Source: Burkholderiales bacterium (GTDB lineage Bacteria; Pseudomonadota; Gammaproteobacteria; Burkholderiales; Burkholderiaceae_F). Taken from it: DNA of 64,000 nt. Both the position numbers and the translations under genes were made by a program. Below the pieces are notes generated by a model. The model was not told the origin of the DNA and did no database searches. It worked only from the letters and a program-made list of their open reading frames with translations. The stretch is taken from positions 2,058 to 66,057 of the forward strand of contig JBBISD010000002.1 in NCBI GenBank assembly GCA_037441485.1, given 5' to 3'. Shown piece after piece: positions 3 through 16,781 of this stretch; within the stretch, counting starts at the first letter, position 1; each line of letters starts with the position of its first letter.

Positions 3-383
3 CAACCCTGGCGCCGCGCGATGTTCGCCGCGGTGCCCGGCGAGCAGCACACGCTGGGCCTGTCGATGATCGTGCAGTACTTCCTGCGTGCCGGCTGGGA
101 CGCATCGATGCTGCCCAGCGCGGCCGGACAGGACCTGCCGCAGCTCGTTCAGCAGGAGCGCGTGGCCCTGGTCGGCCTGTCGATGAGCCGCGCGGAGCAC
201 GCGCCGATCATCAAGGCGCTGATCCGGCGCATCCGCACCGGCTCGTGCAATCCGGCCGTGCGCGTGATGGTCGGTGGCGTGGCGTTTTCCCGCGATGGCG
301 GGCTGGCGGAGCAGGTTGGCGCCGACGGCACCGCCACCGATGCTGCGCAGGCTGTCAATCTAGCTCAACAACTGGTATTGTAA
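3..383 (+). CDS. ppaA: AerR/PpaA cobalamin (B12)-binding antirepressor of PpsR, 5'-truncated by the window edge
   Basis: GEQHTLG (E-x-H-x-x-G) B12-binding motif, LVGLS strand, VMVGG motif; directly upstream of ppsR; frame open to the window start. Confidence 0.88.
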   Translation, partial: QPWRRAMFAAVPGEQHTLGLSMIVQYFLRAGWDASMLPSAAGQDLPQLVQQERVALVGLSMSRAEHAPIIKALIRRIRTGSCNPAVRVMVGGVAFSRDGGLAEQVGADGTATDAAQAVNLAQQLVL

Positions 384-483: not shown

Positions 484-1914
484 TTGCCGCAGCCGTTTCG
501 AACGCCGGGGAAGAGCCTTGCCGGCATGGACGCCGATTCTGCCTCGCGGGTGATCTCGGCGGCCGCGGACCTGGCACTGGTGCTCGACGATCGCGGCAAC
601 ATCCGCGATCTCTCCGTCGGCACCGACGAACTGGTCGAGGACGACTTCGGCGGGTGGATCGGCCGTCCCTGGATCGACACGGTCACGGCCGAGAGCCGCC
701 CCAAGATCGAGGCGCTGATGACCGGCGCCCGGCAGTCGCAGGTACCGACCTGGCGCCAGATCAACCACGCCGGCGCGCGTGGCGGCGATATCCCGCTGCT
801 GTATTCCGCGGTCAAGGGCGGCAAGGCCGGCACGGTGATCGCCCTCGGGCGCAGCATGCGCAACGTGGCCGCCCTGCAGCAGCGCCTGGTGCACGCCCAG
901 CAGTCGCTCGAGCGCGACTACGAATTCCTGCGCCAGGCCGAAACGCGCTATCGGATGCTGTTCGACCTGGCGCTCGAGGCCGTGCTCATCCTGGAGGCCG
1001 GGTCGCAGAAGATCGTCGATGCCAACCCGGCGGCCGGCCGCCTGCTGGGTCAGGGCGTGCGTTTCATGATCGGCCGCACCTTCCCCGAGGGTTTCGACGA
1101 GGAGGGCACGCGCGCCATCCAGGACCTGATCGGCGCGATCCGCGTCGCCGGTCGGGCGGGCGAAGTCGTCGTGCAGCTCAACGCCGATGAGCGTCGTTTC
1201 GTCGTGTCGGCCTCGCCCTTCCGCCAGGACAATGCCTCGCACATCCTGCTGCGCCTGGTGCCGCTGGCTGCCAGCGAGCCGGTGAGCGGCGAGGCGGAGC
1301 GCAACCGCCTCACCGCGGTGCTCGAGCGCCTGCCCGACAGTTTCGTGCTCACCGATCCGGGCGGCCGGATCCTCACCGCCAACCGCTCGTTCCTCGATCT
1401 GGTGCAGCTCACGTCCGAGGGGCAGGTCCGCGGCGAGCCGCTCGAGCGCTGGCTCGGACGCTCGGGGGTCGACCTGAGCGTGCTGCTGGCCAATCTCAAG
1501 GAGCACGACTCGATCCGGTTGTTCTCGACGACCGTGCGCGGCGAATATGGCGCGATGTCCGACGTCGAAATCTCCGCGGTTACCGCGCCGGATGCGGATC
1601 CGCCCTGCGTGGCCTTCTCGATCCGCTCGATCGCCCGGCGCCTGCCCGAGCAGGTAATGGGCGCGGGGCGCGAACTGCCGCGCTCGGTCCAGCAGCTCAC
1701 CGAGTTGATCGGCCGCGTGCCCCTCAAGGACGTGGTGCGCGAGACCACCGACGTGATCGAGCGCCTGTGCATCGAGGCCGCGCTCGAGCTCACCGGCGAC
1801 AACCGCGCGTCGGCCGCCGAAATGCTCGGCCTCAGCCGGCAGAGCCTGTACGTCAAGCTGCACCGCTACGGCATCGCCGACACCGCGGCCAGCGGCGCCG
1901 GTTCCGGCCAGTAG
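484..1914 (+). CDS. ppsR: Photosynthesis gene regulator PpsR/CrtJ (N-PAS, Q-linker, two PAS domains, Fis-type HTH)
   Basis: QQRLVHAQQSLERDY Q-helix; canonical C-terminus IERLCIEAALELTGDNRASAAEMLGLSRQSLYVKL including the Cys; TTG start after a purine-rich SD. Confidence 0.95.
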   Translation: MPQPFRTPGKSLAGMDADSASRVISAAADLALVLDDRGNIRDLSVGTDELVEDDFGGWIGRPWIDTVTAESRPKIEALMTGARQSQVPTWRQINHAGARGGDIPLLYSAVKGGKAGTVIALGRSMRNVAALQQRLVHAQQSLERDYEFLRQAETRYRMLFDLALEAVLILEAGSQKIVDANPAAGRLLGQGVRFMIGRTFPEGFDEEGTRAIQDLIGAIRVAGRAGEVVVQLNADERRFVVSASPFRQDNASHILLRLVPLAASEPVSGEAERNRLTAVLERLPDSFVLTDPGGRILTANRSFLDLVQLTSEGQVRGEPLERWLGRSGVDLSVLLANLKEHDSIRLFSTTVRGEYGAMSDVEISAVTAPDADPPCVAFSIRSIARRLPEQVMGAGRELPRSVQQLTELIGRVPLKDVVRETTDVIERLCIEAALELTGDNRASAAEMLGLSRQSLYVKLHRYGIADTAASGAGSGQ

Positions 1915-2031: not shown

Positions 2032-2907
2032 ATGAAAGCCCCGTCGCCGGCCACGGTCCTGGAACTTTTGAAACCTGTCACGTGGTTCCCGCCGATGTGG
2101 GCGTTCGGCTGCGGCGTCGTCTCGGCCGGGGTCTCGGTGGCCGACCACTGGGGGCTCGCGCTGGCGGGCATCGCGGTGGCCGGGCCCATGGTGTGCGGCA
2201 CGAGCCAGGCCGCCAACGACTGGTTCGATCGCAAGGTCGATGCGATCAACGAGCCGCTGCGGCCGATTCCGTCCGGGCGCATACCCGGGCGCTGGGGCCT
2301 GTACATCGCGCTGGCCTGGACGCTGGTGTCGCTGCTGGCCGCCTCGGTGCTGGGCACCTGGGGCTTCGGTGCCGCGATCTTCGGCCTGGTGCTGGCCTGG
2401 GCCTACAGCGCGCCGCCGGTCCGTCTCAAGCAGAACGGCTGGTGGGGCAACGCCGCCTGCGGCCTGTGCTACGAGGGGCTGCCGTGGATCACCGGCTGGG
2501 CGGTGATGGTGGCGGGGGGAACCTCGCCCTGGCGCGTGCTGCCGATCGCCGCGCTCTACAGCATCGGCGCGCACGGCATCATGACCCTGAACGACTTCAA
2601 GTCGGTCGAGGGCGACCGCCAGGTGGGCATCGGTTCGCTGCCGGTGCAGCTGGGCGTCGACCGCGCCGCGCGCGTCGCCTGCGCGGTGATGGCCGGCGCG
2701 CAGCTCGCCGTCATCGCACTGCTCGTGCTGTGGGGCGCGCCGGTCCACGCCGCCTGCGTGGCGCTGGTCCTGGCGGTCCAGGTGGCGCTGATGCGCCGTT
2801 TCCTCAGTGATCCGAGCCGCTACGCGGTTTGGTACAGCGCCATCGGCGTCAGCCTGTACGTATCGGGCATGCTGGTCAGCGCGTTTGCCTTGCGCCAGGG
2901 GGTCTGA
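2032..2907 (+). CDS. bchG: Bacteriochlorophyll synthase
   Basis: LLKPVTWFPPMWAFGCG, NDWFDRKVDAINEPLRPIPSGR, LNDFKSVEGD motifs. Confidence 0.96.
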   Translation: MKAPSPATVLELLKPVTWFPPMWAFGCGVVSAGVSVADHWGLALAGIAVAGPMVCGTSQAANDWFDRKVDAINEPLRPIPSGRIPGRWGLYIALAWTLVSLLAASVLGTWGFGAAIFGLVLAWAYSAPPVRLKQNGWWGNAACGLCYEGLPWITGWAVMVAGGTSPWRVLPIAALYSIGAHGIMTLNDFKSVEGDRQVGIGSLPVQLGVDRAARVACAVMAGAQLAVIALLVLWGAPVHAACVALVLAVQVALMRRFLSDPSRYAVWYSAIGVSLYVSGMLVSAFALRQGV

Positions 2908-2908
2908 G

Positions 2909-4201
2909 ATGCAACCAAGCGATACGAGAACGCCGGCCGCCCGCCGCAGCGACGATGCCGACACCTACGATGCCATCGTCATCGGTGGCGGACCGGCCGG
3001 TGCCACTGCCGCCACCGACCTGGCGCGGCGCGGGCGGCGCGTGGCCATGGTCGACCAGGCCGGGCGCATCAAGCCCTGCGGCGGCGCCATACCGACGGCC
3101 CTCATCGAGGAGTTCGCCATTCCCGACGACCTGCTCGTGGCGCGGGTCACCGCGGCGCGGATGGTCTCGCCGCGGCGCCGCCAGGTCGGCATGCCGATCA
3201 GCGAGGGCTTCGTCGGCATGGTCGATCGCGAGCATTTCGACGAATGGCTGCGACAGCGCGCCGCCACCACAGGGGCCCAGCGCATCACCGCGGCCTTCGA
3301 GCGGGCCGAACGGATCGAACCGGCGTCCGCCGGCCCGGCGCACCCGCCGACACTGCGCGTGCATGTGCGCGAGGCCGACGGCCGCCGGCGGGTGCTGCAG
3401 ACACGTTCGCTCATCGGCGCCGACGGCGCGCGCTCGCGCGTTGCCCAGCAGTGCATCCGCGGCGCGGACAAGGCGCGCTTCGTGTTCGCCTATCACGAGA
3501 TCGTCGCCTCGCCCCAAGCGCTGCCCGCGCCGGCCACGGCCGCGCCGGCGCTGTCTGCCACCGCCCCGGGCGGCTTCGACGGCAAGCGCTGCGACGTCTA
3601 CTACAGCGGCGAGATCTCGCCGGATTTCTATGGCTGGATCTTTCCGCACGGCGCCACGACCAGCGTCGGATCGGGCAGCGCACGCCAGGGATTCTCGGTG
3701 CGCCGCGCCGTCGACGCGCTGCGCGGCGAGGCTGGCCTGGCCGGCGCGGCGACGCTGCGCCGCGAAGGCGCGCCGATCCCGATGCGGCCGCTCGACCGCT
3801 GGGACAACGGCCGCGACGTCGTTCTGGCCGGCGATGCCGCCGGCGTGGTCGCGCCGGCGTCCGGCGAGGGCATCTATTACGCGATGGCCGGCGGCCAGTT
3901 CGCAGCCGAGGCCGTCGAACAGTTCCTCGCCACCGGCAATGCGCGCTGCCTGGCGCAGGCGCGGCGCCAGTTCATGAAGCGGCACGGCCGGGTGTTCTGG
4001 GTGCTCGATATCATGCAGCGCTTCTGGTACTCGAGCGACAAGCGGCGCGAGCGCTTCGTCAGCATCTGCGCCGATCCCGACGTGCAACAGCTCACCTGGC
4101 AGGCCTACCTGCGCAAGCGCCTGGTGCGCTCGCGGCCGATGGCGCACGTGCGCATCTTCTTCAAGGACCTGGGTCACCTGCTCGGCGTCGTGCGGACGTG
4201 A
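2909..4201 (+). CDS. bchP: Geranylgeranyl reductase
   Basis: GGGPAG FAD motif, KPCGGAIP, GDAAGVVAPASGEGIYYAM; ATG at 2909 directly after the bchG stop. Confidence 0.95.
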   Translation: MQPSDTRTPAARRSDDADTYDAIVIGGGPAGATAATDLARRGRRVAMVDQAGRIKPCGGAIPTALIEEFAIPDDLLVARVTAARMVSPRRRQVGMPISEGFVGMVDREHFDEWLRQRAATTGAQRITAAFERAERIEPASAGPAHPPTLRVHVREADGRRRVLQTRSLIGADGARSRVAQQCIRGADKARFVFAYHEIVASPQALPAPATAAPALSATAPGGFDGKRCDVYYSGEISPDFYGWIFPHGATTSVGSGSARQGFSVRRAVDALRGEAGLAGAATLRREGAPIPMRPLDRWDNGRDVVLAGDAAGVVAPASGEGIYYAMAGGQFAAEAVEQFLATGNARCLAQARRQFMKRHGRVFWVLDIMQRFWYSSDKRRERFVSICADPDVQQLTWQAYLRKRLVRSRPMAHVRIFFKDLGHLLGVVRT

Positions 4202-4554: not shown

Positions 4555-5274
4555 ATGGCCCGGTGGGCGCCGGTATCATGGCCGCAAATGCCAAGCCCTG
4601 CGCACCGCAACGAAGTGCCCGAACGGCTGGATGACGCGCTGCGGACGGGCACGCGCGCGCTGCACGCCATGGTCGAGCGCGCCGGCGTGATGCCGGCGCT
4701 GCTGGGCGGGCGCATCGACCGGCCGACCTACTGCCGGCTGCTGCGCAACCTGGCGGCCATCTACGGCGCGCTCGAGACCGCGCTCGGGCGCCACCGCGCG
4801 CAGCCGCGGCTCGCGGCGCTGGCGCTGCCGGGGCTGGCGCGGGCGCCGGCGCTGGCCGACGATCTGGCGGTACTCCACGGTCCCGACTGGTACGACGCCC
4901 TGCCGGTGCAGCCGGCGGCGCTGCGCTACGTCGCGCGGCTGCAGGACCTCGAGCGCGCGGCGCCCGAACGGCTCGCGGCGCACGCCTACGTGCGTTATCT
5001 GGGCGACCTGAGCGGCGGGCGCATGCTGCGCGCGATCGTCGCGCCCAGCCTGGGATTGGACGCCGCGGCCGGCATGCGCTTCTACGATTTCGGCGACCCG
5101 GACGGCGCGCCGGCGCTGGCGCGGCAGTTCCGCGCCGGGCTGCGCGCGGTCCCGATCGACGCCGCCGGCATCGATGCGCTGGTGCGCGAGGCCCAGTGGA
5201 GCTTTGCCTGCCACGGCGAAATGTTCGAGGAGATCATGGCCGCCGCGGCAATGGCAATGGCCCCTCGTCCGTGA
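4555..5274 (+). CDS. Biliverdin-producing heme oxygenase (HO1/HmuO type); start may be 4588
   Basis: LRTGTRALH proximal His, AHAYVRYLGDLSGG distal helix; adjacent to a bacteriophytochrome gene. Confidence 0.9.
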   Translation: MARWAPVSWPQMPSPAHRNEVPERLDDALRTGTRALHAMVERAGVMPALLGGRIDRPTYCRLLRNLAAIYGALETALGRHRAQPRLAALALPGLARAPALADDLAVLHGPDWYDALPVQPAALRYVARLQDLERAAPERLAAHAYVRYLGDLSGGRMLRAIVAPSLGLDAAAGMRFYDFGDPDGAPALARQFRAGLRAVPIDAAGIDALVREAQWSFACHGEMFEEIMAAAAMAMAPRP

Positions 5275-5343: not shown

Positions 5344-7548
5344 CTAGTCCGGTGCCGCCGCCGCGTGTTCCCGGATGCGCCGGTACAGTGCCGTTGCGCG
5401 CTGGATGGACGCCTCGAGTTCCTCGATCAGCGGCGCCACGGTCGGGGCGCTGGCCGCGTCGGAGATGTCCATCGCCGCCATGCTCGCATTGGCGAACAGC
5501 GCCCCGATCACCTCGTCGCCGGCCGGCGGGCGCTGGGTGTCGGCGCCGGGCATGGCCGGCCCCAGGGCGCCTTGCGACAGCGACTGCTCCAGGTGCTGCA
5601 GCGCGACCGCCGCGCGGCGCCGCTCGGTGCGGTCGAGCACGATCACGATGAAGCCGAGCACCGCGCCGTCGCGGCCCGGCACGACCTCGGCGCGCACGCT
5701 CACCGGCACGCTGCCGCCGTCGGGCCGCGCGATCTGCGCGTCGCCGCGCCAGGACTCGTGCCGGGTGCGCAGGCGGGCCAGCATGACCGCCGCGGCATCG
5801 CGCTCGCAGAACAGCGCGGCCAGCGCGTCGATGCCGTCGCGGGCCGCGTCGGCCAGCGCCGCCGCGCTGCGCCCGGCCAGCGCGCAGAACGGCGGATTGG
5901 CGAAGGATGCCGCGCCCGCGGCGCCTACCACCAGCACCGGTTCGGTGGAACTGGCGATGGTGCCGCGGATCTGCCCAATCTGGTGTTCGGCGATCAGCAG
6001 GCGTACCGCGTTCACCTGGGCGATGATGTCCACCAGGGCCGAGCCGATGGCCTGCGCGAAGAGCAGTTCCTTGCGCGACCAGGGCAGGGCGGTGCCGCGG
6101 ACGATCTCGGACCAGGCGGCGAACGAGCGCCGCGGCGACAGTTCGAGCGGGTCGTCGCGCACCACCGGCTTGGTCGGATCGCCCGCCCACGTGACCGTCT
6201 GCAGCTGCTCCTTGCGGAACCAGACGAGGTAGTCGGGACGGGCATCGGACAGGCGCACCGCCAGCACGCCGCTGGCCGTGGGGGTCAGCGAGGCCAGCGC
6301 CGGGTTCTCGCGCTCGACCGACGAGCACTGGAACAGACCTTCGGCGGCGCGCCCGTCGAACCAGTCGAGCAGGGTCCGCAGTTCGGGCGTCGAGGGCACC
6401 TCGCCGCCGGTGAGGATCTCGCCCTCGTAGTACAGCGCCGCCCCGGTGGCCTCGAGCGGCTGCAGCAGCGTGCGCGGATTGCGGAACAGCGCCAGGCGCC
6501 AGTCGCCCTCGGTGGAGGTGGCCTCGACCAGCCGCTGCTCCAGGCGGCGCACCAGCAGGTCGACCTGGGCGTGGGCGTAGTTCTCGATCGCGGCCAGGCG
6601 GGTGGCGATCGCCTCGGCGAGCATTTCGCACGCGGCGCGCACCGGATAGCGCAGGTTGCGCGGGCTGTCGTGGTGGCAGGCGATCAACCCCCACAGGCGG
6701 CCCTCGCGCACCAGCGAGACCACCAGCGTGGCATTGACGCCCATGTTCTTCAGGTACTGGATGTGCAGCGGCGACATGCTGCGCAGGTAGCACAGCGACA
6801 TGTCGAGTTCGCGGCCCGTATGCGGCTGCAGGCGCGGTTCGACCGGCACCGGCTGGTAGTGCACGTCGACCAGCACGCGCACGCGGGTGCGCAGGTACAG
6901 CTCGCGCGCGCGCTGCGGAATGTCGGACGCCGGGTAGTGGTGCCCGAGCAGCGTGTCCAGGCGCGGATGCCGCGCCTCGGCAACGATCTTGCCGTGCCCG
7001 TCGGGGTCGAATTTGTAGGCCATGACGCGGTCGTAGCCGGTCAGGTCGCGGAAGATCTGCACCACCGCGTCCAGCAGCACGCCCTGGTTGGCAGAGTCGC
7101 CGATGCGCTGCACGGCGGCCGCGATGGTGTCCATCAGGTGCGGGGCGGCGAAGCTGACGGTCTCGGGCCCGTCCGGGTCCGGCGCCAGCGATTCAAGCTC
7201 GAGGATCAGGCCCTGCTCGGGATGGCGGTGGACCGTGCCCTCGAACGCGCTGCCGCTGCCGTCCAGGCGCGTGCGCAGCGGGCGGCTCTCCTCGGGCCCG
7301 AGCCCGGCGGCCGCGCGATGCAGTTCGCCGGCCAGCGCGGTGCCCAGGCGCTCCAGCGGCTGTCCCAGCAGCGCGGTTGCCGGGATGCCGAGGACGGCCG
7401 CGCAGTTGGCGCTGGCCTGGATGACCGTGAAATTGGCCGGTTCGATGACCAGCAGTGCACCATGCGGCTGTATGGACCCGGCAAGGTGGATGAGCTCGCG
7501 CTCGCAATTGCTCAGGTCTGCCTCGCCAAACGCCGGGCTGCTAAGCAA
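5344..7548 (-). CDS. bphP: Bacteriophytochrome, RpBphP1-like (PAS-GAF-PHY-PAS/PAC-HOS, no histidine kinase)
   Basis: N-terminal DLSNCERE biliverdin-binding Cys, GSIQPHG, ASDIP, SPLHIQY, PHY tongue PRRSF, C-terminal PAS plus helical tail; TTG start with GGAG SD. Confidence 0.93.
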   Translation of the reverse strand: MLSSPAFGEADLSNCERELIHLAGSIQPHGALLVIEPANFTVIQASANCAAVLGIPATALLGQPLERLGTALAGELHRAAAGLGPEESRPLRTRLDGSGSAFEGTVHRHPEQGLILELESLAPDPDGPETVSFAAPHLMDTIAAAVQRIGDSANQGVLLDAVVQIFRDLTGYDRVMAYKFDPDGHGKIVAEARHPRLDTLLGHHYPASDIPQRARELYLRTRVRVLVDVHYQPVPVEPRLQPHTGRELDMSLCYLRSMSPLHIQYLKNMGVNATLVVSLVREGRLWGLIACHHDSPRNLRYPVRAACEMLAEAIATRLAAIENYAHAQVDLLVRRLEQRLVEATSTEGDWRLALFRNPRTLLQPLEATGAALYYEGEILTGGEVPSTPELRTLLDWFDGRAAEGLFQCSSVERENPALASLTPTASGVLAVRLSDARPDYLVWFRKEQLQTVTWAGDPTKPVVRDDPLELSPRRSFAAWSEIVRGTALPWSRKELLFAQAIGSALVDIIAQVNAVRLLIAEHQIGQIRGTIASSTEPVLVVGAAGAASFANPPFCALAGRSAAALADAARDGIDALAALFCERDAAAVMLARLRTRHESWRGDAQIARPDGGSVPVSVRAEVVPGRDGAVLGFIVIVLDRTERRRAAVALQHLEQSLSQGALGPAMPGADTQRPPAGDEVIGALFANASMAAMDISDAASAPTVAPLIEELEASIQRATALYRRIREHAAAAPD

Positions 7549-7614
7549 TGGTTTTCTCCGAGCCCGGTGCGCGAAGGATCGCGCGCGCCGGGCGGCAAAT
7601 GCCGGACACGAGGC

Positions 7615-9048
7615 CTAGCCCGGGTTCTTTGGACCCGGATCGGCGGCCCTGTCGGGCGAAGGGGGATCCTGACGCAGCCGCGCCTCGAGCTGATCGGGAC
7701 TCAGGCCCAGCATCCGCGCGGCGGTCTGGCGATCGCGCTCGGAGATCTGCATCGCGGTCTGCACGAAATAGCGCTCGGCCTGCGCCGATACCCGGGCGAG
7801 CAGCTCCGGCAGTTCCATCTGGCCGAGCTGGCGGGTCAGCGATTCGATCGCGCGGACGAGTTCGGCATTCTTCTGCGGCCGCTGCAGGCTGCGCAGGGTG
7901 TCCTGGTCCTGTACGCGGATGGTCAGGCCGATGCACTCCTGCTCCTCGTCGGCCAGCAGCGCCGCCGATACGTCGATGCGCGCCGTGCGCCCGCGCAGGC
8001 CGCGCATCGACAGCGAGCGGCGGGCGCCGATGCCGTGTTCGCGCGCCTGGGCGATGACATCGGCCAGGCCGGTGTCGATCAGGTCGACCAGGTGCTGCCC
8101 GCGGGCGTGGTTGTCGTCGGCGAATTGCGCCAGCTCGATGAAGGCCGGATTGGCCATCAGGATGCGCCCGCCGGTGTCGGCCACGACGACCGAGTCGGGG
8201 GTGCATTCGACCAGCTTGAGCAGCGTCCAGCTCGCGTCGCCCGCCTCGGCGTGCGCATCGGCCGCGCGGGCGCGCAGCAGCAGCAGCATGCCGTCGGCCG
8301 ACCGGAACGGCGTCGCCGAAAGGCGCACGCTGAGGCGGCGCCCGGCCAGCCAGGCGCGGGTCTCGGCCGCCAGGCCGGTGGCGCGCGTGCTGGCGAGCAT
8401 TTCGCCGACCGCGGGCCGCGACGCGCGGTCGATGCAGGACACGGTATCCATGCCGATCAGGCGGTCGAGCGCGATGTCGAACAGCGTGCCGGCCGCGTGG
8501 TTGGCGTCGACGATGCGCAGGGTCTCGGCGTCGACCACCAGCACGGCGTCGGTGGCCACCTGGAACAGCACGCGGTAGCGCGCTTCGGCCTGCCGGTGCT
8601 TCCAGTATTCGCGCTCGATCTCCTGCTGCGCATCGACGAACTGCTGCTGGATGGCGCCGATGGCGCGCAGGTCGCGGCCCACGGCCAGCACCGGACCGTC
8701 GGCGCCGAGGCGCACCGCGGCATACGACACGGGGATGTCGACGCCATCGGGAGACGGATGGTTGATCTCGCGGCGCCGCGAGATGCCGGTGGTGTCGGCC
8801 TCGCGCAGCAGCTCCTCGACCTTGGTGCGGGTTTCGCCGGTGACGGTGTCGGCCCAGGCGCGGCCAACCCAATCGCGGGCGCCGGGCGCCAGCTGCCCGC
8901 TGCCGCCCAACGCGACCTTGTCGATCACGCCGTGCGAATCGATGACCAGCGCGATATCGCTCGCCAGCGAGACGAAGGTCTCGGCCAGTTCCGGTGCGTG
9001 CTTCGAGAGGGCCGCCAGATCGGCGGTGGACCCCGAACGCTGGTTCAC
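7615..9048 (-). CDS. ppsR2: Second PpsR-family protein (PpsR2-like) with a degenerate HTH
   Basis: SDIALVID N-PAS, QQQFVDAQQEIEREY Q-helix, two PAS domains; C-terminus AARMLGLSPDQLEARL; GTG at 9048 with GGAG SD; co-oriented just upstream of bphP. Confidence 0.85.
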   Translation of the reverse strand: MNQRSGSTADLAALSKHAPELAETFVSLASDIALVIDSHGVIDKVALGGSGQLAPGARDWVGRAWADTVTGETRTKVEELLREADTTGISRRREINHPSPDGVDIPVSYAAVRLGADGPVLAVGRDLRAIGAIQQQFVDAQQEIEREYWKHRQAEARYRVLFQVATDAVLVVDAETLRIVDANHAAGTLFDIALDRLIGMDTVSCIDRASRPAVGEMLASTRATGLAAETRAWLAGRRLSVRLSATPFRSADGMLLLLRARAADAHAEAGDASWTLLKLVECTPDSVVVADTGGRILMANPAFIELAQFADDNHARGQHLVDLIDTGLADVIAQAREHGIGARRSLSMRGLRGRTARIDVSAALLADEEQECIGLTIRVQDQDTLRSLQRPQKNAELVRAIESLTRQLGQMELPELLARVSAQAERYFVQTAMQISERDRQTAARMLGLSPDQLEARLRQDPPSPDRAADPGPKNPG

Positions 9049-9382
9049 GTCAGTGACTCCGCTGCGGGTTGCGGCGCGGGCACCGGCTGCTGCCGGCGCG
9101 GACCAGGTCCCGGTGTGGGTTCCGCCGCCGTGTCCGGGGAACGCATGCAACGGGGGCCTGTTGCCAGACGCGTCGCTGACCGCACGTTGAAAACGGGATT
9201 CTAGACCATGGGAATCGTCGCCGGGGCGCTGGCGCGCGGGGAATTTGCGGCCTGCCGGGGGATTGTCGCGTGGCGGTCACGCCGTGGCCGGTGCCGATCC
9301 GGGCGCCACCCCGGCGCGCTGCCGCGACCCGCTGCGCGTTGCGCGATGTCCGGCCGGCAGCCGGCGATCGCCGCGGGCCGGT

Positions 9383-10330
9383 TCACGCGGCGCCGGTGTG
9401 GTCCGCGGCGCCGCCCGGCGCGTCGCCGGCCGGCGCGGCAATGGGAGGCGATTCGAGCTGCCGGACGAGGGCATACAGCGCGTGGTTGGCCGGCGCGGGC
9501 ACGCCACGCTCGCGGCCCCGCCGCACGATGATGCCGTTCAGGTGATCGATTTCGGTGCGCCGACCGCGCGCCAGGTCGTGCGCCGTCGACGACACCTGGG
9601 TCGGCATCGTCGCGGCGATGTGCTCCACCGCCGCCCAGGTCGTGTCCGGCAGCGCGACGCCCTCGGCGCGCGCCACGGCGCCGCATTCGTCGACCACGGC
9701 CTGCATCAGCGCGCGCACCTCCGGGTCCTGGAACAGCGGCCCGTACGGCCGCTGCGTGATGGCCGACAGCGCGTTGTAGGCGCAGTTGATCGCCAGCTTG
9801 GTCCAGAGCGCGGCGTCGATGCCGGCCGACACCGTGACGGGGACCCCGGCGGCGCCAAAGGCGGCCACGATGGCGGCGTCGCCCGGCGAGGGCGCGACCA
9901 CGAGCTCGCCGCGACCGTGGTGCCGAACGTGCCCCGGCCCGGCCATCTGCGCGGCGACGTAGACCGCGGTGGCCACGACCGGTTGCGCCAGCAGCGCCTG
10001 CAGGCGCGCGGCGTTGTCGACCCCGTTCTGCATGCTCATGACGATCGCCGTCGCGTCCAGGTGCGGCGCCAGTGCCCGCGCGGCGGCCTCGGAGTCGGCC
10101 GACTTCACGCAGCACAGCACCAGCGCCGCGCCGCGCACCGCGGCCGCATCGGTACTGGCGTGCAGCGCGACGTGGGTGTCGAGATCGCGGGTCTGCAGGC
10201 GCAGGCCGCGCGCGGCGATGGCCTCGACGTGGCGGGTCCGTCCGACCAGCACGACGTCGTGGCCGGCGCGGGCCAGCAACGCGCCGAAATAGCAGCCGAC
10301 GGCGCCGGCGCCGAAGACGGCGATCTTCAC
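9383..10330 (-). CDS. panE: 2-dehydropantoate 2-reductase (ketopantoate reductase family)
   Basis: GAGAVG, VKS, QNG, WTKLAINCAYN, SSTAHDL, TEIDHLNG. Confidence 0.88.
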   Translation of the reverse strand: MKIAVFGAGAVGCYFGALLARAGHDVVLVGRTRHVEAIAARGLRLQTRDLDTHVALHASTDAAAVRGAALVLCCVKSADSEAAARALAPHLDATAIVMSMQNGVDNAARLQALLAQPVVATAVYVAAQMAGPGHVRHHGRGELVVAPSPGDAAIVAAFGAAGVPVTVSAGIDAALWTKLAINCAYNALSAITQRPYGPLFQDPEVRALMQAVVDECGAVARAEGVALPDTTWAAVEHIAATMPTQVSSTAHDLARGRRTEIDHLNGIIVRRGRERGVPAPANHALYALVRQLESPPIAAPAGDAPGGAADHTGAA

Positions 10331-10749
10331 GGGTGCGCGCCTGGCGCCGGCGGCACCGGGCGCCGCAGCGCGAAGATGGCCGCCGCCAGCGCCAGGATGA
10401 GCGCCGCGATGCCCACCAGTATGGTCCAGGGCTTGTCCGCCAGGTCCATGGTGATCACCTTGTTGCAGAGGGCGATCAGCGCCGTCTGCACGACCAGCGT
10501 GGTATCGACCTCGTGCGCGAGGCGCAGGTGGCGCAGGATCTTGAGCAGTTCGACGCCGACCAGTACCGCAACGAACAGGCCGAAGACGTCGAACAGCGCC
10601 TTGGGTTCGGCAACCAGGTCATGCACCGAGATCAGGTCCTGCGCCAGCGACCATGCGGTGATGGCGGTGCCGAAAAGGATGGTCGCCATCAGCAGCACCA
10701 TCAGCGCGCTGACGGCGAGGCGCTCGAATTGTCCGGCCAGTTTTTCCAT
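10327..10749 (-). CDS. PsiE-family (phosphate-starvation-inducible E-like) membrane protein
   Basis: Four TM segments with LVGVELL and ALIALCNKVI patterns; overlaps the panE start by 4 bp. Confidence 0.7.
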   Translation of the reverse strand: MEKLAGQFERLAVSALMVLLMATILFGTAITAWSLAQDLISVHDLVAEPKALFDVFGLFVAVLVGVELLKILRHLRLAHEVDTTLVVQTALIALCNKVITMDLADKPWTILVGIAALILALAAAIFALRRPVPPAPGAHP

Positions 10750-10810
10750 CGGTGCTCGCCTCGTCGGGATCGGTGCGCGACGCCGATCATACGGCGCGCC
10801 GGCCTGCCGG

Positions 10811-11833
10811 TCAGGGGCCGCGCGTCAGGCCGAAGGCGTTCCACAACGCGGCCGTGAACAGCAGCACGGCCCCGGCCTGGTGGGCCGCGGCCAGCGGCAG
10901 CGCCACGCCCGACAGCAGGGTCGCGACACCCAGTGCCAGCTGCACCAGCAGGGCCAGCAGCAGCATGCCGGCCGCCGGCCGCGCCCCGCGGCGCCAGGCC
11001 TGGCGGGCCAGCGCGGCCACGGCCAGCAGGACGACGAGCGCCAGCGCGCGGTGCAGGAACTGTATGGCCGTCAGGTTATCGCGCAGGTTGTCGTACCATG
11101 GGCTCAGCGCCAGCAGCCCGTCGGGCAACAGGGCGCCGTTCATCAGCGGGAACGTTCGATAGGCCAGTCCGGCGTGCGCGCCGGCCATCAGTCCGCCGCT
11201 GAGTATCATTGCCAGCACGACCAGCACCGCGGCGCCGGCCAGTGGCGGCAATGTCCGGCGCGGCGTGCCGGCGGCGCGCAGTGCCCAGGCGTTCCACAGC
11301 AGCAGGCCGATCAGCAGCAGCGCCATCCCCAGGTGGGCGCTCAGGCGCAGCGGACTGACGCGCGGATCGCTGGCCAGGCCGCTGGCCACCATGTACCAGC
11401 CCAGCGCTCCCTGCAGCGCGCCCAGCGCGAAGATGGCCGCCAGCCGCAGCGGCAGGCCGCGCGGCAGGCGCCGGCGGGCGGCGAACCAAAGCAGCGGCAG
11501 CAGGAACGCGAGTCCCGCGATCCGCGCCAGCAGGCGGTGCGCGTATTCCCACCAGAAGATGGTCCGGAAGCCCTCGATATCCATGTCGGGATTGACGAGG
11601 CGGAACTCCGGCGACGCCTGGTATTGCGCGTACGCCCGTGCCCAGTCCGCTGCCGACAGCGGCGGCAGCACGCCGGTCACGGGCTGCCACTGCACGATCG
11701 ACAGCCCGGCGTGCGTCAGCCGCGTGATGCCGCCGACCAGCAGCACCACGACCACCAGCGCCGCGCAGGCCTGCAGCCAGCGCCCCGGCGCCGCGTGGCC
11801 GGCGGGCGGACCGCCCGGCGCATCGCTTTTCAT
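10811..11833 (-). CDS. ctaA: Heme A synthase (COX15/CtaA)
   Basis: GGITRLTHAGLSI, WEYAHR, QGALGWYMVASGL, SAHL, QFLHR, AAHQ; all four conserved His present. Confidence 0.92.
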   Translation of the reverse strand: MKSDAPGGPPAGHAAPGRWLQACAALVVVVLLVGGITRLTHAGLSIVQWQPVTGVLPPLSAADWARAYAQYQASPEFRLVNPDMDIEGFRTIFWWEYAHRLLARIAGLAFLLPLLWFAARRRLPRGLPLRLAAIFALGALQGALGWYMVASGLASDPRVSPLRLSAHLGMALLLIGLLLWNAWALRAAGTPRRTLPPLAGAAVLVVLAMILSGGLMAGAHAGLAYRTFPLMNGALLPDGLLALSPWYDNLRDNLTAIQFLHRALALVVLLAVAALARQAWRRGARPAAGMLLLALLVQLALGVATLLSGVALPLAAAHQAGAVLLFTAALWNAFGLTRGP

Positions 11834-12561
11834 CGTGCGGCGGCCGCCGGCGGGGGCCGGCGCAGCACCCCGACCACGGCAGCGCCGGCCATCGCCGCCA
11901 GCGCGTACCAGGTAATGGCATACGCCAGATGGTTGTCGTTGAAGCGCACGACGGTCAGGCCGCCGACCGGCCCGTCGGGGGCGGCCGGGCCGTCCGCATC
12001 GAGGAAATAGGGTGCCACCGTGCCCAGGCCGCGGGCCGCGGCGATGGACGCCACGTCACGCGAATACCAGCGGTCGTGCACCGGATCATTGCGATGCAGG
12101 AAGCCGCCGCCGGGCTCGCTCAGGCGCAGCAGCCCGCTGACGCGGACCGTGCCGCCGGGCCCGCCGCCGGCCGGTTGCTGCCATCCGGGCCCGACGAACC
12201 CGCGGTTGACCAGGATGACGGTGCCGTCGCCGGCCTGCAGCGGCGTGAGGACCCAGTAGCCGGCGCCCAGTTCCGTCGCCGCCTGCACCAGGGTCTGGCG
12301 CTGGTGGATCCAGACGCCGCTGGCCAGTACCCGGCGGTATTCGTCGTGCGCGGCATCCACCTGCGGCCATTGCGCCGGTCCGGGCGCCGGCACCGGTGCG
12401 GCCTGCAGGCGTGCGTCGACGCGGGCGATGAGCTCGTGCTTCCAGGCGCGGCGGGCGACCTGCCAGGTGCCCAGCAGCACGAAGCCGAGGCAGGCCAGTG
12501 CGGCGAGCAGCGCCAGGGCGCGGCGCGCCGCCGGCGGACGCGGTGCGGAGGCGGCGCTCAT
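11830..12561 (-). CDS. SURF1-family oxidase assembly protein
   Basis: LGTWQVARRAWK, GYWVLTPL, LVNRGFV, HLAYAITWY; ATG at 12561. Confidence 0.9.
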   Translation of the reverse strand: MSAASAPRPPAARRALALLAALACLGFVLLGTWQVARRAWKHELIARVDARLQAAPVPAPGPAQWPQVDAAHDEYRRVLASGVWIHQRQTLVQAATELGAGYWVLTPLQAGDGTVILVNRGFVGPGWQQPAGGGPGGTVRVSGLLRLSEPGGGFLHRNDPVHDRWYSRDVASIAAARGLGTVAPYFLDADGPAAPDGPVGGLTVVRFNDNHLAYAITWYALAAMAGAAVVGVLRRPPPAAAAR

Positions 12562-12598
12562 GGCCTGGACGGGCACCGGTACGGCGCGCGGCTCACTG

Positions 12599-12639
12599 CC
12601 CTCACCCCAAGGACCTCTCCTGCCGGCGCAAGCGGGGGG
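12599..12639 (+). repeat. Degenerate copy of a CCCTCACCCC...CCTCTCC...GGG REP/BoxC-like intergenic repeat
   Basis: CCCTCACCCCAAGGACCTCTCC...GCAAGCGGGGGG, similar to the copy at 41163-41200. Confidence 0.45.
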
Positions 12640-12698
12640 TTCCTCCGCGGATCGGCCGCGCTCGCGCAATGCAAACAGGACGTCCGGCAGCGGGCCAT

Positions 12699-13085
12699 CT
12701 ACGGCATGTTGCGCATCTGCTGCGTCGACAGCGGCATCATGTTCTCGTTGAGGTGGTACATCACCCAGAGCGAACCGCTCAGGGTGATGAGCACCAGGAC
12801 GAGGGTGAAGATCAGCGCCAGCAGGTTCCAGCCGCCCTCGGAGGAGGCGTTCATGTGCAGGAAATAGACCATGTGCACGACGATCTGCACCGCGGCGAAA
12901 GCCAGCAGCACGAAGGCCGCCAGCCGTGGATTGGCGATGGCCTTGCCCATTACCAGCCAGAACGGGATCGCGGTCAGGACCACCGACAGCACGAATCCGG
13001 TCAGGTAGCCCTGGAGGGTGGCTTGGCCGGCGTCGCCGTGGGCGTCGTCGCCGTGACCACCGGCGTGCGGATGCAGTGCGCTCAC
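12699..13085 (-). CDS. cyoD: Quinol oxidase subunit IV
   Basis: [35 protein letters not shown]; GTG overlaps the cyoC stop. Confidence 0.93.
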
Positions 13086-13723
13086 GGCAGGACTCCCATC
13101 AGGTAGACGAAGGTGAACACCCCGATCCAGACCACGTCCAGGAAATGCCAGAACATGGACAGGCACATCAGGCGCCGGCGATTGGTCTCGTTCAGGCCGT
13201 GGCGCAGCACCTGGACCATCAGCGTCAGCAGCCAGACGATGCCGACGCTCACGTGCAGGCCGTGGGTGCCCACCAGCGTGAAAAACGACGACAGGAAGGC
13301 GCTGCGCTGCGGCCCCGCGTCCTCCTGGATCAGGTGCGCGAATTCCTGCAGCTCCACCGTGACGAACCCGGCGCCGAGCAGGCCGGTTATGGCCAGCCAC
13401 GCCAGGGTCGCGCCGCGCTGGTGGCGCTGCATGTGCAGCACCGCAAAGCCATAGGTGATCGAGGACAGCAGCAGCAGCGAGGTGTTGAGCGCCACCACCG
13501 GCAAGTCGAAGATCTCGGCGCCGGTCGGGCCGCCGGCATAGCTGCGCCCCAGCACGCCGTAGCAGGCGAACAGGCAGGCGAAGAGCAGGCAGTCGCTCAT
13601 CAGGTACAGCCAGAAGCCGAGCAGCGTGCCGTTGGCGGCGTGGCGCTCCTCGCTCAGGTGGAAGCGGGTCGGCTGGCCGGGCGCAGCGGCCCCGGGTCCG
13701 GCCATGACGGTGGTATCAGACAT
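13082..13723 (-). CDS. cyoC: Quinol oxidase subunit III
   Basis: [32 protein letters not shown]. Confidence 0.95.
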
Positions 13724-15719
13724 GTTGGCCCAGCAGGCGGGTGCGGGATTCTTCCGTGCGGGCGACCTCGTCGGCCGCAATGTGGAAGTCCCGTGCGTAG
13801 TTGAAGGTGTGGACGATCGTGGCCACGATCAGCGCGGCGAAAGTGGCCGCCACGAGCAGCCACATGTGCCAGATCAGCGCAAAGGCGCAGGCCGTGCTGA
13901 TCATCGCCAGCACGAAGCCGGCCGCGGTGTTCTTCGGCATGTGGATGGCCCGGTAACCGCCGAGCGGGCGCACGTAGCCGCGGCGCTTCATGTCGTACCA
14001 CGCATCGCTGTCGTGGACCAGCGGCGTGAAGGCGAAGTTGTAGCCCGGTGGCGGCGAGGCGGTCGACCACTCGAGCGTGCGGCCGTTCCACGGGTCGCCC
14101 GTGACGTCGCGCAGCGCCGCGCGCCGCAAGAAGCTCACGACCAGCTGGACCAGGAAGGCGGCGATTCCGAGCGCGATCAATGCGGCGCCGAAGGCGGCCA
14201 GCTGGAACCAGATCTGCAGCGTCGGATCGTCGAAGTGGCTCAGCCGGCGGGTGACGCCCATCAGGCCGAGCACGTACAGCGGCATGAAGGCGAAGTAGAA
14301 GCCCACCAGCCACAGCCAGAACGAGCACTTGCCCCAGAACGGGTCGAGGCGGTAGCCGAACGCCTTGGGAAACCAGTAGGTGATGCCGGCCATCGCGCCG
14401 AAGACCACGCCGCCGATGATCACGTTGTGGAAATGGGCGATGAGGAACAGGCTGTTGTGCAGCACGAAGTCGGCCGGCGGCACCGCCAGCAGCACGCCGG
14501 TCATGCCGCCGATGACGAAAGTCACCATGAAGCCCATGGTCCAGAGCATCGGCAGTTCGAAGCGGATGCGGCCCCGGTACATCGTGAACAGCCAGTTGAA
14601 TATCTTGGCGCCGGTGGGGATCGAGATGATCATCGTGGTGATGCCGAAGAACGAATTGACGCTCGCCCCCGAGCCCATCGTGAAGAAGTGGTGCAGCCAG
14701 ACCAGGTAGGAGAGCACGGTGATCACGACCGTGGCGTACACCATCGAGGCGTAGCCGAACAGCCGCTTGCCGCAGAAGGTGGCGACCACCTCGGAGAAGA
14801 CGCCGAAGACCGGCAGCACCAGGATGTACACCTCGGGGTGGCCCCACACCCAGATGAGGTTCACGTACATCATCGCATTGCCGCCCAGGTCGTTGGTGAA
14901 GAAGTGCGTCCCGACATAGCGGTCCATCGACAGCAGCGCCAGCACGGCCGTGAGCACCGGGAAGGCGACCACGATCAGCGCGTTGGTGCACAGCGCCGTC
15001 CAGGTGAACACCGGCATGCGCATCATCGTCATGCCGGGTGCGCGCATCTTGACGATGGTCGCGATCAGGTTCACGCCCGAGAGCATCGTCCCCACCCCGG
15101 CCACCTGCAGCGACCATATGTAGTAGTCGACGCCCACGTCCGGGCTGTACGCCAGTCCCGACAGCGGCGGATAGGCCAGCCAGCCGGTACGCGCGAACTC
15201 GCCGACGAACAGCGAGACCATGATCAGCGCCGCGCCGCCGACCGTCATCCAGAAGCTGAAGTTGTTGAGGAAGGGGAAGGCCACGTCGCGCGCGCCGATC
15301 TGCAGCGGCACGACGAAGTTCATCAGGCCGGTCACCAGCGGCATCGCGACGAAGAAGATCATGATGACGCCGTGCACCGTGAACAGCTGGTCGTAGTGGT
15401 GCGGGGGCAGGAAACCGGTGGCATCGCCGAACGAGACCGCCTGCTGGGCGCGCATCATCACCGCGTCGCCGAAGCCGCGCAGCAGCATCACGACGGCCAG
15501 CACGATGTACATGACGCCGATCTTCTTGTGGTCGATGCTGGTGATCCAGTCGCGCCACAGCGGACCCCACAGCCGGAAATAGGAGATCGCGCCGAGCACC
15601 GCCAGGCCGCCCAGCGCGACGGCGACGAACGTACCCACGACGATGGGCTCATGCAGCGGCAGGGCCTCGAGGCTCAGGCGGCCGAGGAGGAGCTGGGTCA
15701 GTTGGGACGGATCGAACAT
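13716..15719 (-). CDS. cyoB: Heme-copper quinol oxidase subunit I
   Basis: RGFGD and HHYDQ quinol-site residues, WGHPEVY, WLHH, AHFH. Confidence 0.96.
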
Positions 15720-15809
15720 GGCGAGGCTGCTTTCGCGGTGTTGCCCGGGCGGGCCCGGCATGGGGAGGAGTCGATGGCCAATCCCGGCAGGGGCGGTCCG
15801 GCGCGGGCC

Positions 15810-16781
15810 TCAGTCGTGGCCGGCGTGCGCCGTGGCCGCGTCCATCGGCATCATGTCGCGCATGCACCGGGCGCCGGGCGCGACGCAGCGGTTGACGATG
15901 GCGTCGTACAGGTCGGGGGCCACGCTGGCATAACGGCGCACCGGCTCGCGCATGCTCGGGCGGCTCAGCTGTTCGTAGCCCTCGCGCCCCAGGCTGCCGC
16001 CGGCCGCGCGCACGTCCTGCACCCACCGGTCGAAGCCGGCGGCGCTCAGGCCGCGGAAGCGAAAGCGCATGTGCGAGAAGCCCGCGCCGCTGTAGTTGGC
16101 AGAGAAGCCCTCGTAGTCGCCCGCATGGTTGATGACCGCGTTGAGCCGGGTTTCCATGCCCGGCATCGCGTAGATCTGGCCGGCCAGCGCCGGCACGTAG
16201 AACGAGTTCATCACCGACTCGGCGGTGATGCGGAACTCCAGGGGCACGTCGACCGGCGCGGCCAGCTCGTTGACGACCGCGATGCCCTGGTCCGGATAGA
16301 CGAACAGCCATTTCCAGTCCAGCGCCACGACCTCGACCGTCAGCGGCCGCACGTAGCCGGTCACCGGGCGCTGCGCATCGATGCGCCCCAGCGGCCGGTA
16401 CGGATCGAGCGTATGGGTGCTGATCCAGGTGAGCGCGCCCAGCGCGATGACGATCAGCAGCGGTGCCGCCCAGATCACCAGCTCTAGCTGGATGGAATGG
16501 TCCCACTCGGGGGCGTAGCGTGCATCGGCATTGCCCTGCCGATAACGCCAGGCGAAGAAGAAGGTAAGGACGATCACCGGCACGATGATGAGCAGCATCA
16601 GGACGGTCGAGACCACGATCAGGTGGCCTTGCTGCTCGGCAACATCACCGGAAGGGCGCAGCAGCACCAGCTTGCAGCCCCCGAGCAGCGCGGCGGCACC
16701 GGCCGCTACCAGCGACCGGCAAAGACGGGCGGGCGACAACATGCGGTCAGCCACGGCGCGCTCAATCCGTGGAGAAGCCAT
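15810..16781 (-). CDS. cyoA: Quinol oxidase subunit II (no CuA site); start could be 16742
   Basis: LLGGC lipobox-like segment, DWKWLF, SANYSGAGFSHM in place of CuA ligands. Confidence 0.93.
   Translation of the reverse strand: MASPRIERAVADRMLSPARLCRSLVAAGAAALLGGCKLVLLRPSGDVAEQQGHLIVVSTVLMLLIIVPVIVLTFFFAWRYRQGNADARYAPEWDHSIQLELVIWAAPLLIVIALGALTWISTHTLDPYRPLGRIDAQRPVTGYVRPLTVEVVALDWKWLFVYPDQGIAVVNELAAPVDVPLEFRITAESVMNSFYVPALAGQIYAMPGMETRLNAVINHAGDYEGFSANYSGAGFSHMRFRFRGLSAAGFDRWVQDVRAAGGSLGREGYEQLSRPSMREPVRRYASVAPDLYDAIVNRCVAPGARCMRDMMPMDAATAHAGHD

Follow-up and report, generated by a model that had tools for sequence, protein, structure and literature searches.

The gene ppsR2, which codes for a paralog of the photosynthesis repressor PpsR, lies directly ahead of the bacteriophytochrome gene bphP in a 64,000-nucleotide stretch of DNA from a Burkholderiales bacterium (GenBank assembly GCA_037441485.1, contig JBBISD010000002.1, positions 2,058 to 66,057; the whole stretch is hereafter termed the window). 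Its product represents a large Burkholderiales family, in which the recognition helix of the C-terminal helix-turn-helix (HTH) domain is highly variable or missing. On the basis of gene order, domain content, the conservation pattern and HTH-less relatives, all of which were observed directly, we give an even chance to the view that PpsR2 is a BphP-controlled PpsR paralog, which acts mainly via protein contacts, most plausibly on PpsR1, and does not read the operator TGT-N12-ACA. Systems of the kind that combine a BphP1-PpsR2 pair with PpsR1 are known, but an unconstrained or missing recognition helix across a large Burkholderiales family was not found described, and a literature search retrieved no paper linking ppsR2 with Burkholderiales. 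What is new is the contrast in conservation between the paired paralogs, the clade without an HTH and its genomic setting, and the phylogeny.

In PpsR2 of the window (477 amino acids; 7615-9048, minus strand), N-PAS, Q-linker, PAS1 and PAS2 are all intact, and a divergent Fis-type HTH domain follows (residues 412-460; 7669-7815, minus strand, supported by predicted helices and structural matches to Fis). The same layout is found in canonical PpsR/CrtJ proteins such as Rhodobacter sphaeroides PpsR (4HH2) or R. capsulatus CrtJ; PpsR2 matches 4hh2 at an E-value of 3e-37 over residues 13-378, and reaches 296.9 bits against TIGR02040 (cut-off 275.4; residues 60-494 of the long open reading frame). 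In contrast to the canonical proteins, PpsR2 lacks the redox Cys, harbours SPDQLEARL in place of SRQSLYVKL in helix 3 (residues 450-460; 7669-7701, minus strand) and stays below the Pfam cut-off of 22 bits for HTH_8, with 17.0 bits for the whole protein and 19.7 bits for the C-terminus alone. The canonical recognition helix was defined as LGLSRQSLY[V/A]KL plus the Cys in ERxCI. PpsR1 (476 amino acids; 484-1914, plus strand) reads ERLCIEAAL...LGLSRQSLYVKL, carries the redox Cys and the helix SRQSLYVKL, and scores 503 bits against TIGR02040 and 42 bits against HTH_8. PpsR2 reads ERYFVQTAM...LGLSPDQLEARL, where ERYFV stands for ERxCI and four of the nine canonical helix-3 positions are kept. The net charge of residues 450-462 amounts to -1, versus +3 or +4 in PpsR1, and the net charge of helix 3 spans -2 to +5 over the PpsR2 proteins. 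The two paralogs are 34% identical and represent the only two PpsR copies in the source genome. A preliminary description of this DNA had noted two PpsR genes about 6 kb apart, the canonical HTH of PpsR1, the retained PAS and Q regions of the bphP-linked copy and its replaced recognition helix, all of which is borne out here (the distance being about 5.7 kb). The missing redox Cys, to which it also drew attention, is indeed absent from PpsR2 but constitutes no special feature: its loss says little, since most wild Rhodopseudomonas palustris PpsR2 proteins also lack this residue (PMC6899989).

The distribution of constraint was assessed by mean pairwise identity in 11 genomes encoding both paralogs. 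PpsR2 is better conserved than PpsR1 in N-PAS (0.64 versus 0.53) and PAS1 (0.62 versus 0.51), with values of 0.72 and 0.75, respectively, for the Q-linker, whereas the opposite holds true for the HTH, where PpsR2 and PpsR1 show identities of 0.46 versus 0.87 in helix 1, 0.55 versus 1.00 in helix 2 and 0.32 versus 0.96 in helix 3. Thus, helix 3, which reads the DNA, hardly varies in PpsR1, whose whole HTH is nearly constant among relatives, but is under very little constraint in PpsR2; by this measure, the constraint in PpsR2 appears shifted from the HTH to N-PAS, Q-linker and PAS1. The family-wide pattern corresponds to what the preliminary description proposed to look for, namely a degenerate HTH shared by bphP-linked homologs together with a constrained Q-PAS1 region. 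Within one genome, the paralogs are most alike in the Q-linker (0.51 identity versus 0.22 in helix 3). At the level of single residues, the Arg of SRQS, which aligns with Fis Arg85, a position that contacts DNA in the Fis-DNA structure, is retained in 21 of 77 PpsR2 proteins and in one of the 18 proteins that form the window's own clade (at least 58% identity). The first residue of helix 2 has changed from Asn to Asp in 54 of the 77 proteins.

Some relatives dispense with the domain altogether. In ten clusters at 50% identity, PpsR2-type proteins of 385-411 amino acids end after PAS2 without an HTH, and the corresponding gene is located ahead of bphP in two of three loci examined. In the first of these loci (L093), aerR and ppsR1 are followed by an HTH-less ppsR2 encoding 401 amino acids and, 27 nucleotides later, by bphP, and the second (L097) again harbours an HTH-less ppsR2 and bphP as a pair. 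The third locus, on a metagenome scaffold (L098), reflects a separate loss of the HTH; here, no bphP lies directly downstream, the gene adjoins crtB and hemB, and it is a phytochrome-orphaned form of PpsR2. Since HTH-less relatives are still found directly ahead of bphP, and in one case directly after ppsR1, canonical DNA reading appears to be dispensable in this lineage. The ten clusters emerged from a profile search over 1.8 billion cluster representatives, which listed another 147 representatives; approximately 68 of the latter were classed as variant-helix PpsR2. As to the extreme C-termini, ...LLN is the ending of many full-length PpsR2 proteins, an HTH-less protein (P0230) retains ...RLN, and the main HTH-less clade ends in ...[V/L/M]H; the conservation of these final residues hints at a short motif at the C-terminus of PpsR2-family proteins.

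In a tree based on residues 21-380, which leaves out the HTH, and rooted among widespread Cys-type proteins, the order from the outside in is Cys-type PpsR, Cys-less canonical forms, and then the HTH-less clade together with the variant clade that includes the window protein (the variant clade has a support of 0.998, the outgroup steps have 0.97-1.0). According to this tree, the HTH was completely lost at least three times. With the root chosen, the direction of change seems to lead from canonical via Cys-less canonical proteins to bphP-linked forms with a relaxed helix and, finally, to proteins without an HTH. The Cys-less canonical forms include, besides the bphP-linked protein of L012 described below, sole PpsRs encoded next to aerR (L094-L096; L094, the only such genome searched, has one PpsR). 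A homolog search starting from a canonical bphP-linked form (P0061) yielded Gemmatimonadota-type PpsRs, and the canonical proteins nearest to the Burkholderiales PpsR2 family are Cys-less PpsRs, among them those of the Gemmatimonadota type. One contig of assembly GCA_973786675.1 (L012) encodes a bphP-linked, Cys-less PpsR with a fully canonical HTH; its nearest named relatives are PpsRs of Gemmatimonadota. In this locus aerR is directly followed by bchG, leaving the usual ppsR site empty, and the cassette may here be in its ancestral state with a single PpsR.

The link between ppsR2 and bphP is fixed. A one-genome-per-species scan yielded about 420 pattern-confirmed stretches encoding a PpsR2-type protein. 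The best 80 of these all belong to Burkholderiales and include the genera Rhizobacter, Piscinibacter, Methylibium, Variovorax, Ramlibacter, Rhodoferax, Ideonella, Rubrivivax, Aquabacterium and Caldimonas, and the cassette is carried by cultured bacteria such as Variovorax sp. KK3, Methylibium sp. Root1272, Ideonella alba, I. aquatica and Pseudaquabacterium pictum W35. The gene bphP directly follows ppsR2 in all 75 Burkholderiales loci with at least 600 nucleotides of downstream DNA (median gap 67 nucleotides), the downstream BphPs are 56-76% identical to that of the window, and the heme oxygenase gene hmuO is located near bphP in most related loci. In each of the 50 genomes searched, a canonical PpsR scoring 456-550 bits is accompanied by a single copy of the PpsR2 type at 275-370 bits; 49 of the genomes contain exactly two PpsR matches, and the remaining genome (G025) has a third in the canonical range. 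The nearest relatives (L007-L009; 61-68% identity) share the arrangement ppsR2, bphP, hmuO ... bchP, bchG, ppsR1, aerR with the window. A phylum-wide sample of 400 genomes produced only one further BphP1-type gene, which belongs to the window's own order. In a metagenome-assembled genome of an uncultured beta proteobacterium (L074:9869-13801), ppsR2 and bphP form a single stop-free frame of 1311 codons, in which the PpsR2 tail runs directly into the BphP N-terminus. This frame reflects either a natural fusion or a stop codon lost by sequencing error; no other fused PpsR2-BphP protein was found in a large protein collection, which is weak evidence.

The phytochrome of the window (734 amino acids; 5344-7548, minus strand) matches PAS_2, GAF and PHY at E-values of 7e-23, 4e-15 and 7e-51, respectively, followed by a PAS domain (residues 527-645) and a conserved helical tail of about 85 residues, while a domain search returned no match to HisKA or HATPase. 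The closest solved structure is RpBphP1 (4gw9; E 2.6e-176, residues 3-646, PAS9 included) with 592 bits compared to 357 bits for the next match, and Cys15 in the motif NCERE, the N-terminal biliverdin Cys, is invariant in 66 orthologs. With a photosensory core that includes the biliverdin Cys, and with PAS9 and a two-helix HOS element replacing the kinase, the protein is assigned by its sequence to the BphP1-type (type 3) phytochromes. Likewise, a gene for a kinase-less PAS9-HOS bathy-type phytochrome lies beside that of a Cys-less PpsR paralog in R. palustris (RpBphP1-RpPpsR2) and in Bradyrhizobium ORS278 (BrBphP-PpsR2), where a Cys-bearing PpsR1 is encoded elsewhere in the photosynthesis gene cluster and a heme oxygenase gene is found nearby. 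PpsR2 of the window resembles the RpPpsR2-type partners in that it is encoded next to a bphP1-type gene, lacks the Cys and is accompanied by a second PpsR, PpsR1, in the genome. By analogy, ppsR2-bphP together with hmuO (4555-5274, plus strand; PF01126, E 1.8e-49), the putative source of biliverdin for the phytochrome, is regarded as a cassette for sensing far-red/near-infrared light that is of the same kind as RpBphP1/PpsR2.

In R. palustris, far-red light converts RpBphP1 to the Pr state, the binding of which to RpPpsR2 relieves repression (PMC9120076; PMC6899989; PMC9614035), and a fragment comprising Q-linker and PAS1 (QPAS1) suffices for the interaction (PMC9120076; PMC6899989). The partner-binding parts known from the literature coincide with the best-conserved parts of Burkholderiales PpsR2. 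BphP probably still controls PpsR2, and homology and the fixed adjacency of the genes point to binding of the two proteins. In the mechanism proposed, BphP, loaded with biliverdin via HmuO, would bind PpsR2 in one light state. PpsR2 itself would not read TGT-N12-ACA and would alter photosystem gene expression via protein contacts, most plausibly by entering PpsR1 oligomers or dissociating from them; we infer both the loss of canonical operator reading by PpsR2 and the role of PpsR1 as its target. The more specific idea that Burkholderiales PpsR2 is a phytochrome-controlled, non-DNA-binding subunit, which tunes PpsR1 by hetero-oligomerisation, is put forward tentatively and with clearly less than even confidence.

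In the AppA-PpsR and AerR-CrtJ systems a light or cofactor sensor acts on the PpsR oligomer by protein contacts, and aerR adjoins ppsR1 in the window. Unlike in these systems, the proposed go-between would be a PpsR paralog and not an unrelated sensor. Eukaryotic Id proteins are non-DNA-binding paralogs that titrate bHLH transcription factors; the analogy lies in an oligomerisation module that is kept while DNA reading is lost, without any homology to the PpsR proteins, for which the mechanism is a proposed one.

A number of observations weigh against a PpsR2 that acts mainly through protein contacts, and most of them fit the alternative that PpsR2 is a classical DNA-binding repressor, antagonised by BphP in far-red light as in R. 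palustris, the operator specificity of which has changed away from TGT-N12-ACA, possibly per lineage. An AlphaFold2 model of the last 95 residues consists of three helices (pLDDT 85-91), the top Foldseek matches of which are all Fis, followed by NtrC DNA-binding domains (probability 1.0, TM 0.5-0.6, at an E-value of only 0.05), and 64 of 76 PpsR2 C-termini match HTH_8 at E <= 0.01; judged from the model, the C-terminal domain retains a Fis-type fold. Moreover, helix 3 in the window's clade keeps L454, an acidic residue at position 455 (17 of 18 proteins; Tyr in PpsR1), R457 (15 of 18), L458 and R459 (14 of 18), resulting in the derived pattern L-[E/D]-x-R-L-R, and D439 is invariant. The conservation of this derived acidic face does not agree with neutral decay and points to purifying selection on a surface that would have a role, either in contacting a protein or in reading another DNA site. 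In PpsR2 helix 3, R457 and R459/R460 are frequent basic residues, and the Glu together with two Arg could read a different operator. RpPpsR2 itself is a DNA-binding repressor (PMC9614035; PMC6899989), which alone represses in Escherichia coli according to the account of Ong et al. 2018 given in PMC9614035, and among the bphP-linked relatives the protein of L012 has a fully canonical HTH. It is also to be considered that the PpsR2 proteins of R. palustris or Bradyrhizobium and of Burkholderiales are compared by gene context and description, and not as established orthologs, and that PpsR2, judged from its sequence, could serve either as a co-repressor or as an anti-repressor.

Yet, helix 3 is far more variable than all other parts of PpsR2 despite a fixed partner and gene context, the DNA-facing Arg was lost and acidic residues were gained, and several lineages without the whole HTH keep the link to bphP. 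In four related loci, the region upstream of ppsR2 contains no alternative conserved palindrome; what these loci have in common is a promoter-like word only. Unlike in RpPpsR2, the recognition helix of the Burkholderiales proteins (75 loci aligned) is unconstrained, often acidic, or absent, and that of the window is non-canonical, a contrast which is drawn from the literature and not from an alignment. A DNA-binding repressor with altered specificity is considered less likely than action via protein contacts, but it is the strongest of the alternatives. As to the loss of DNA recognition postulated in the preliminary description, the altered helix turned out to be a family trait, but the retained Fis-type fold and the conserved clade pattern agree with a newly acquired function or DNA specificity as well as with loss.

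In another explanation, the C-terminal helical domain of PpsR2 would have been retained mainly because the HOS helices of BphP dock onto it, and its variability would result from co-evolution with the phytochrome and not from DNA reading. A model of the RpBphP1-RpPpsR2 complex based on small-angle X-ray scattering indeed brings the HOS helices and the HTH of PpsR2 together in a hetero four-helix bundle (PMC6899989), and in an exploratory partial Mantel analysis of 66 gene pairs the HTH correlated with HOS (r = 0.22, a value reached in 0 of 300 permutations; Q-PAS1 versus HOS, -0.02). However, the Mantel test is unreliable on related sequences, and all comparisons with PAS9 were positive as well, rendering the signals weak and non-specific. 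HTH-less PpsR2 is paired with a full-length bphP, the product of which matches the window BphP over residues 2-728 of 734, HOS tail included, and QPAS1 by itself binds BphP1 (PMC9120076). This explanation is thus improbable. That ppsR2 is merely a decaying, functionless duplicate, as its sub-threshold HTH_8 match and a TIGR02040 score barely over the cut-off might indicate, is hardly conceivable and was rejected, since the frame is intact in the window and in 75 Burkholderiales loci read end to end, about 420 matching stretches exist, N-PAS and PAS1 are better conserved than in PpsR1, the synteny with bphP is fixed, and the altered helix, far from being a neutral peculiarity of one genome, occurs family-wide and appears to be under purifying selection in the 18-protein clade.

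The window opens within the terminal part of a photosynthesis gene cluster, and ppsR2 forms the border of this cluster. The source assembly comprises 2.6 Mb in 143 contigs (84% complete, 70% G+C), and the reaction-centre subunits L and M are encoded on another contig. The first gene, truncated by the window start, is the 3' part of aerR/ppaA coding for a B12-binding antirepressor (3-383, plus strand; PF02310, E 1.7e-13), and the order aerR-ppsR1 is common to related loci. Downstream of ppsR1 follow bchG for a UbiA-family bacteriochlorophyll synthase (2032-2907, plus strand; PF01040, E 3.7e-35) and a gene for a bchP-like FAD-dependent reductase (2948-4201, plus strand; FAD_binding_3 and Lycopene_cycl matches), which occupies the same position in L007-L009. 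Beyond ppsR2, the minus strand carries the housekeeping genes panE, psiE, ctaA (heme A synthase) and genes for the cytochrome oxidase subunits III, I and II (9383-16781); these border genes differ strongly in related loci, e.g., RuBisCO cbbLS-cbbX is found in L009.

A perfect 7+7 palindrome, TGTCAAT-N4-ATTGACA (1983-2000), precedes bchG as a predicted PpsR-type operator, and an exact TGT-N12-ACA site (TGTCAAT...; 353-370) lies in the 3' end of aerR upstream of ppsR1. Members of the PpsR/CrtJ family bind paired TGT-N12-ACA palindromes. Both sites are likely PpsR1 operators, although the pattern as such is not enriched in the window (6 exact sites versus 3.9 expected) and a window scan allowing one mismatch produced noise. 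About 150 nucleotides upstream of the ppsR2 start, the promoter-like element TGGTCTAGAAT (9198-9208, minus strand) looks like a -10 region, and the same or a near-identical word is present upstream of ppsR2 in L007, L008 and L009 despite differing upstream genes. Since no PpsR box was found beside this element in the window or in these three loci, ppsR2-bphP may be outside PpsR control.

The BphP1-PpsR2 pair is the model for far-red control of photosystem synthesis, and near-infrared optogenetic tools in wide use are built on it. Throughout the studies of this pair PpsR2 has been treated as a DNA-binding repressor, and a large natural family breaks that picture: a helix that is variable or deleted, while a canonical PpsR1 is always present, points to a second, protein-to-protein route of phytochrome signaling. 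The idea is directly testable, since cultured strains carry the cassette, and naturally occurring BphP partners that are small or lack the HTH can be drawn from the family for the construction of tools. If PpsR2 indeed is a non-DNA-binding subunit that tunes PpsR1 by hetero-oligomerisation, one DNA-bound repressor would integrate far-red light (through BphP), B12 and light (through AerR) and redox state (through the PpsR1 Cys), the same trend would have reached its end point in the HTH-less relatives, and in several hundred species a textbook regulator of photosynthesis would be wired in a new way.

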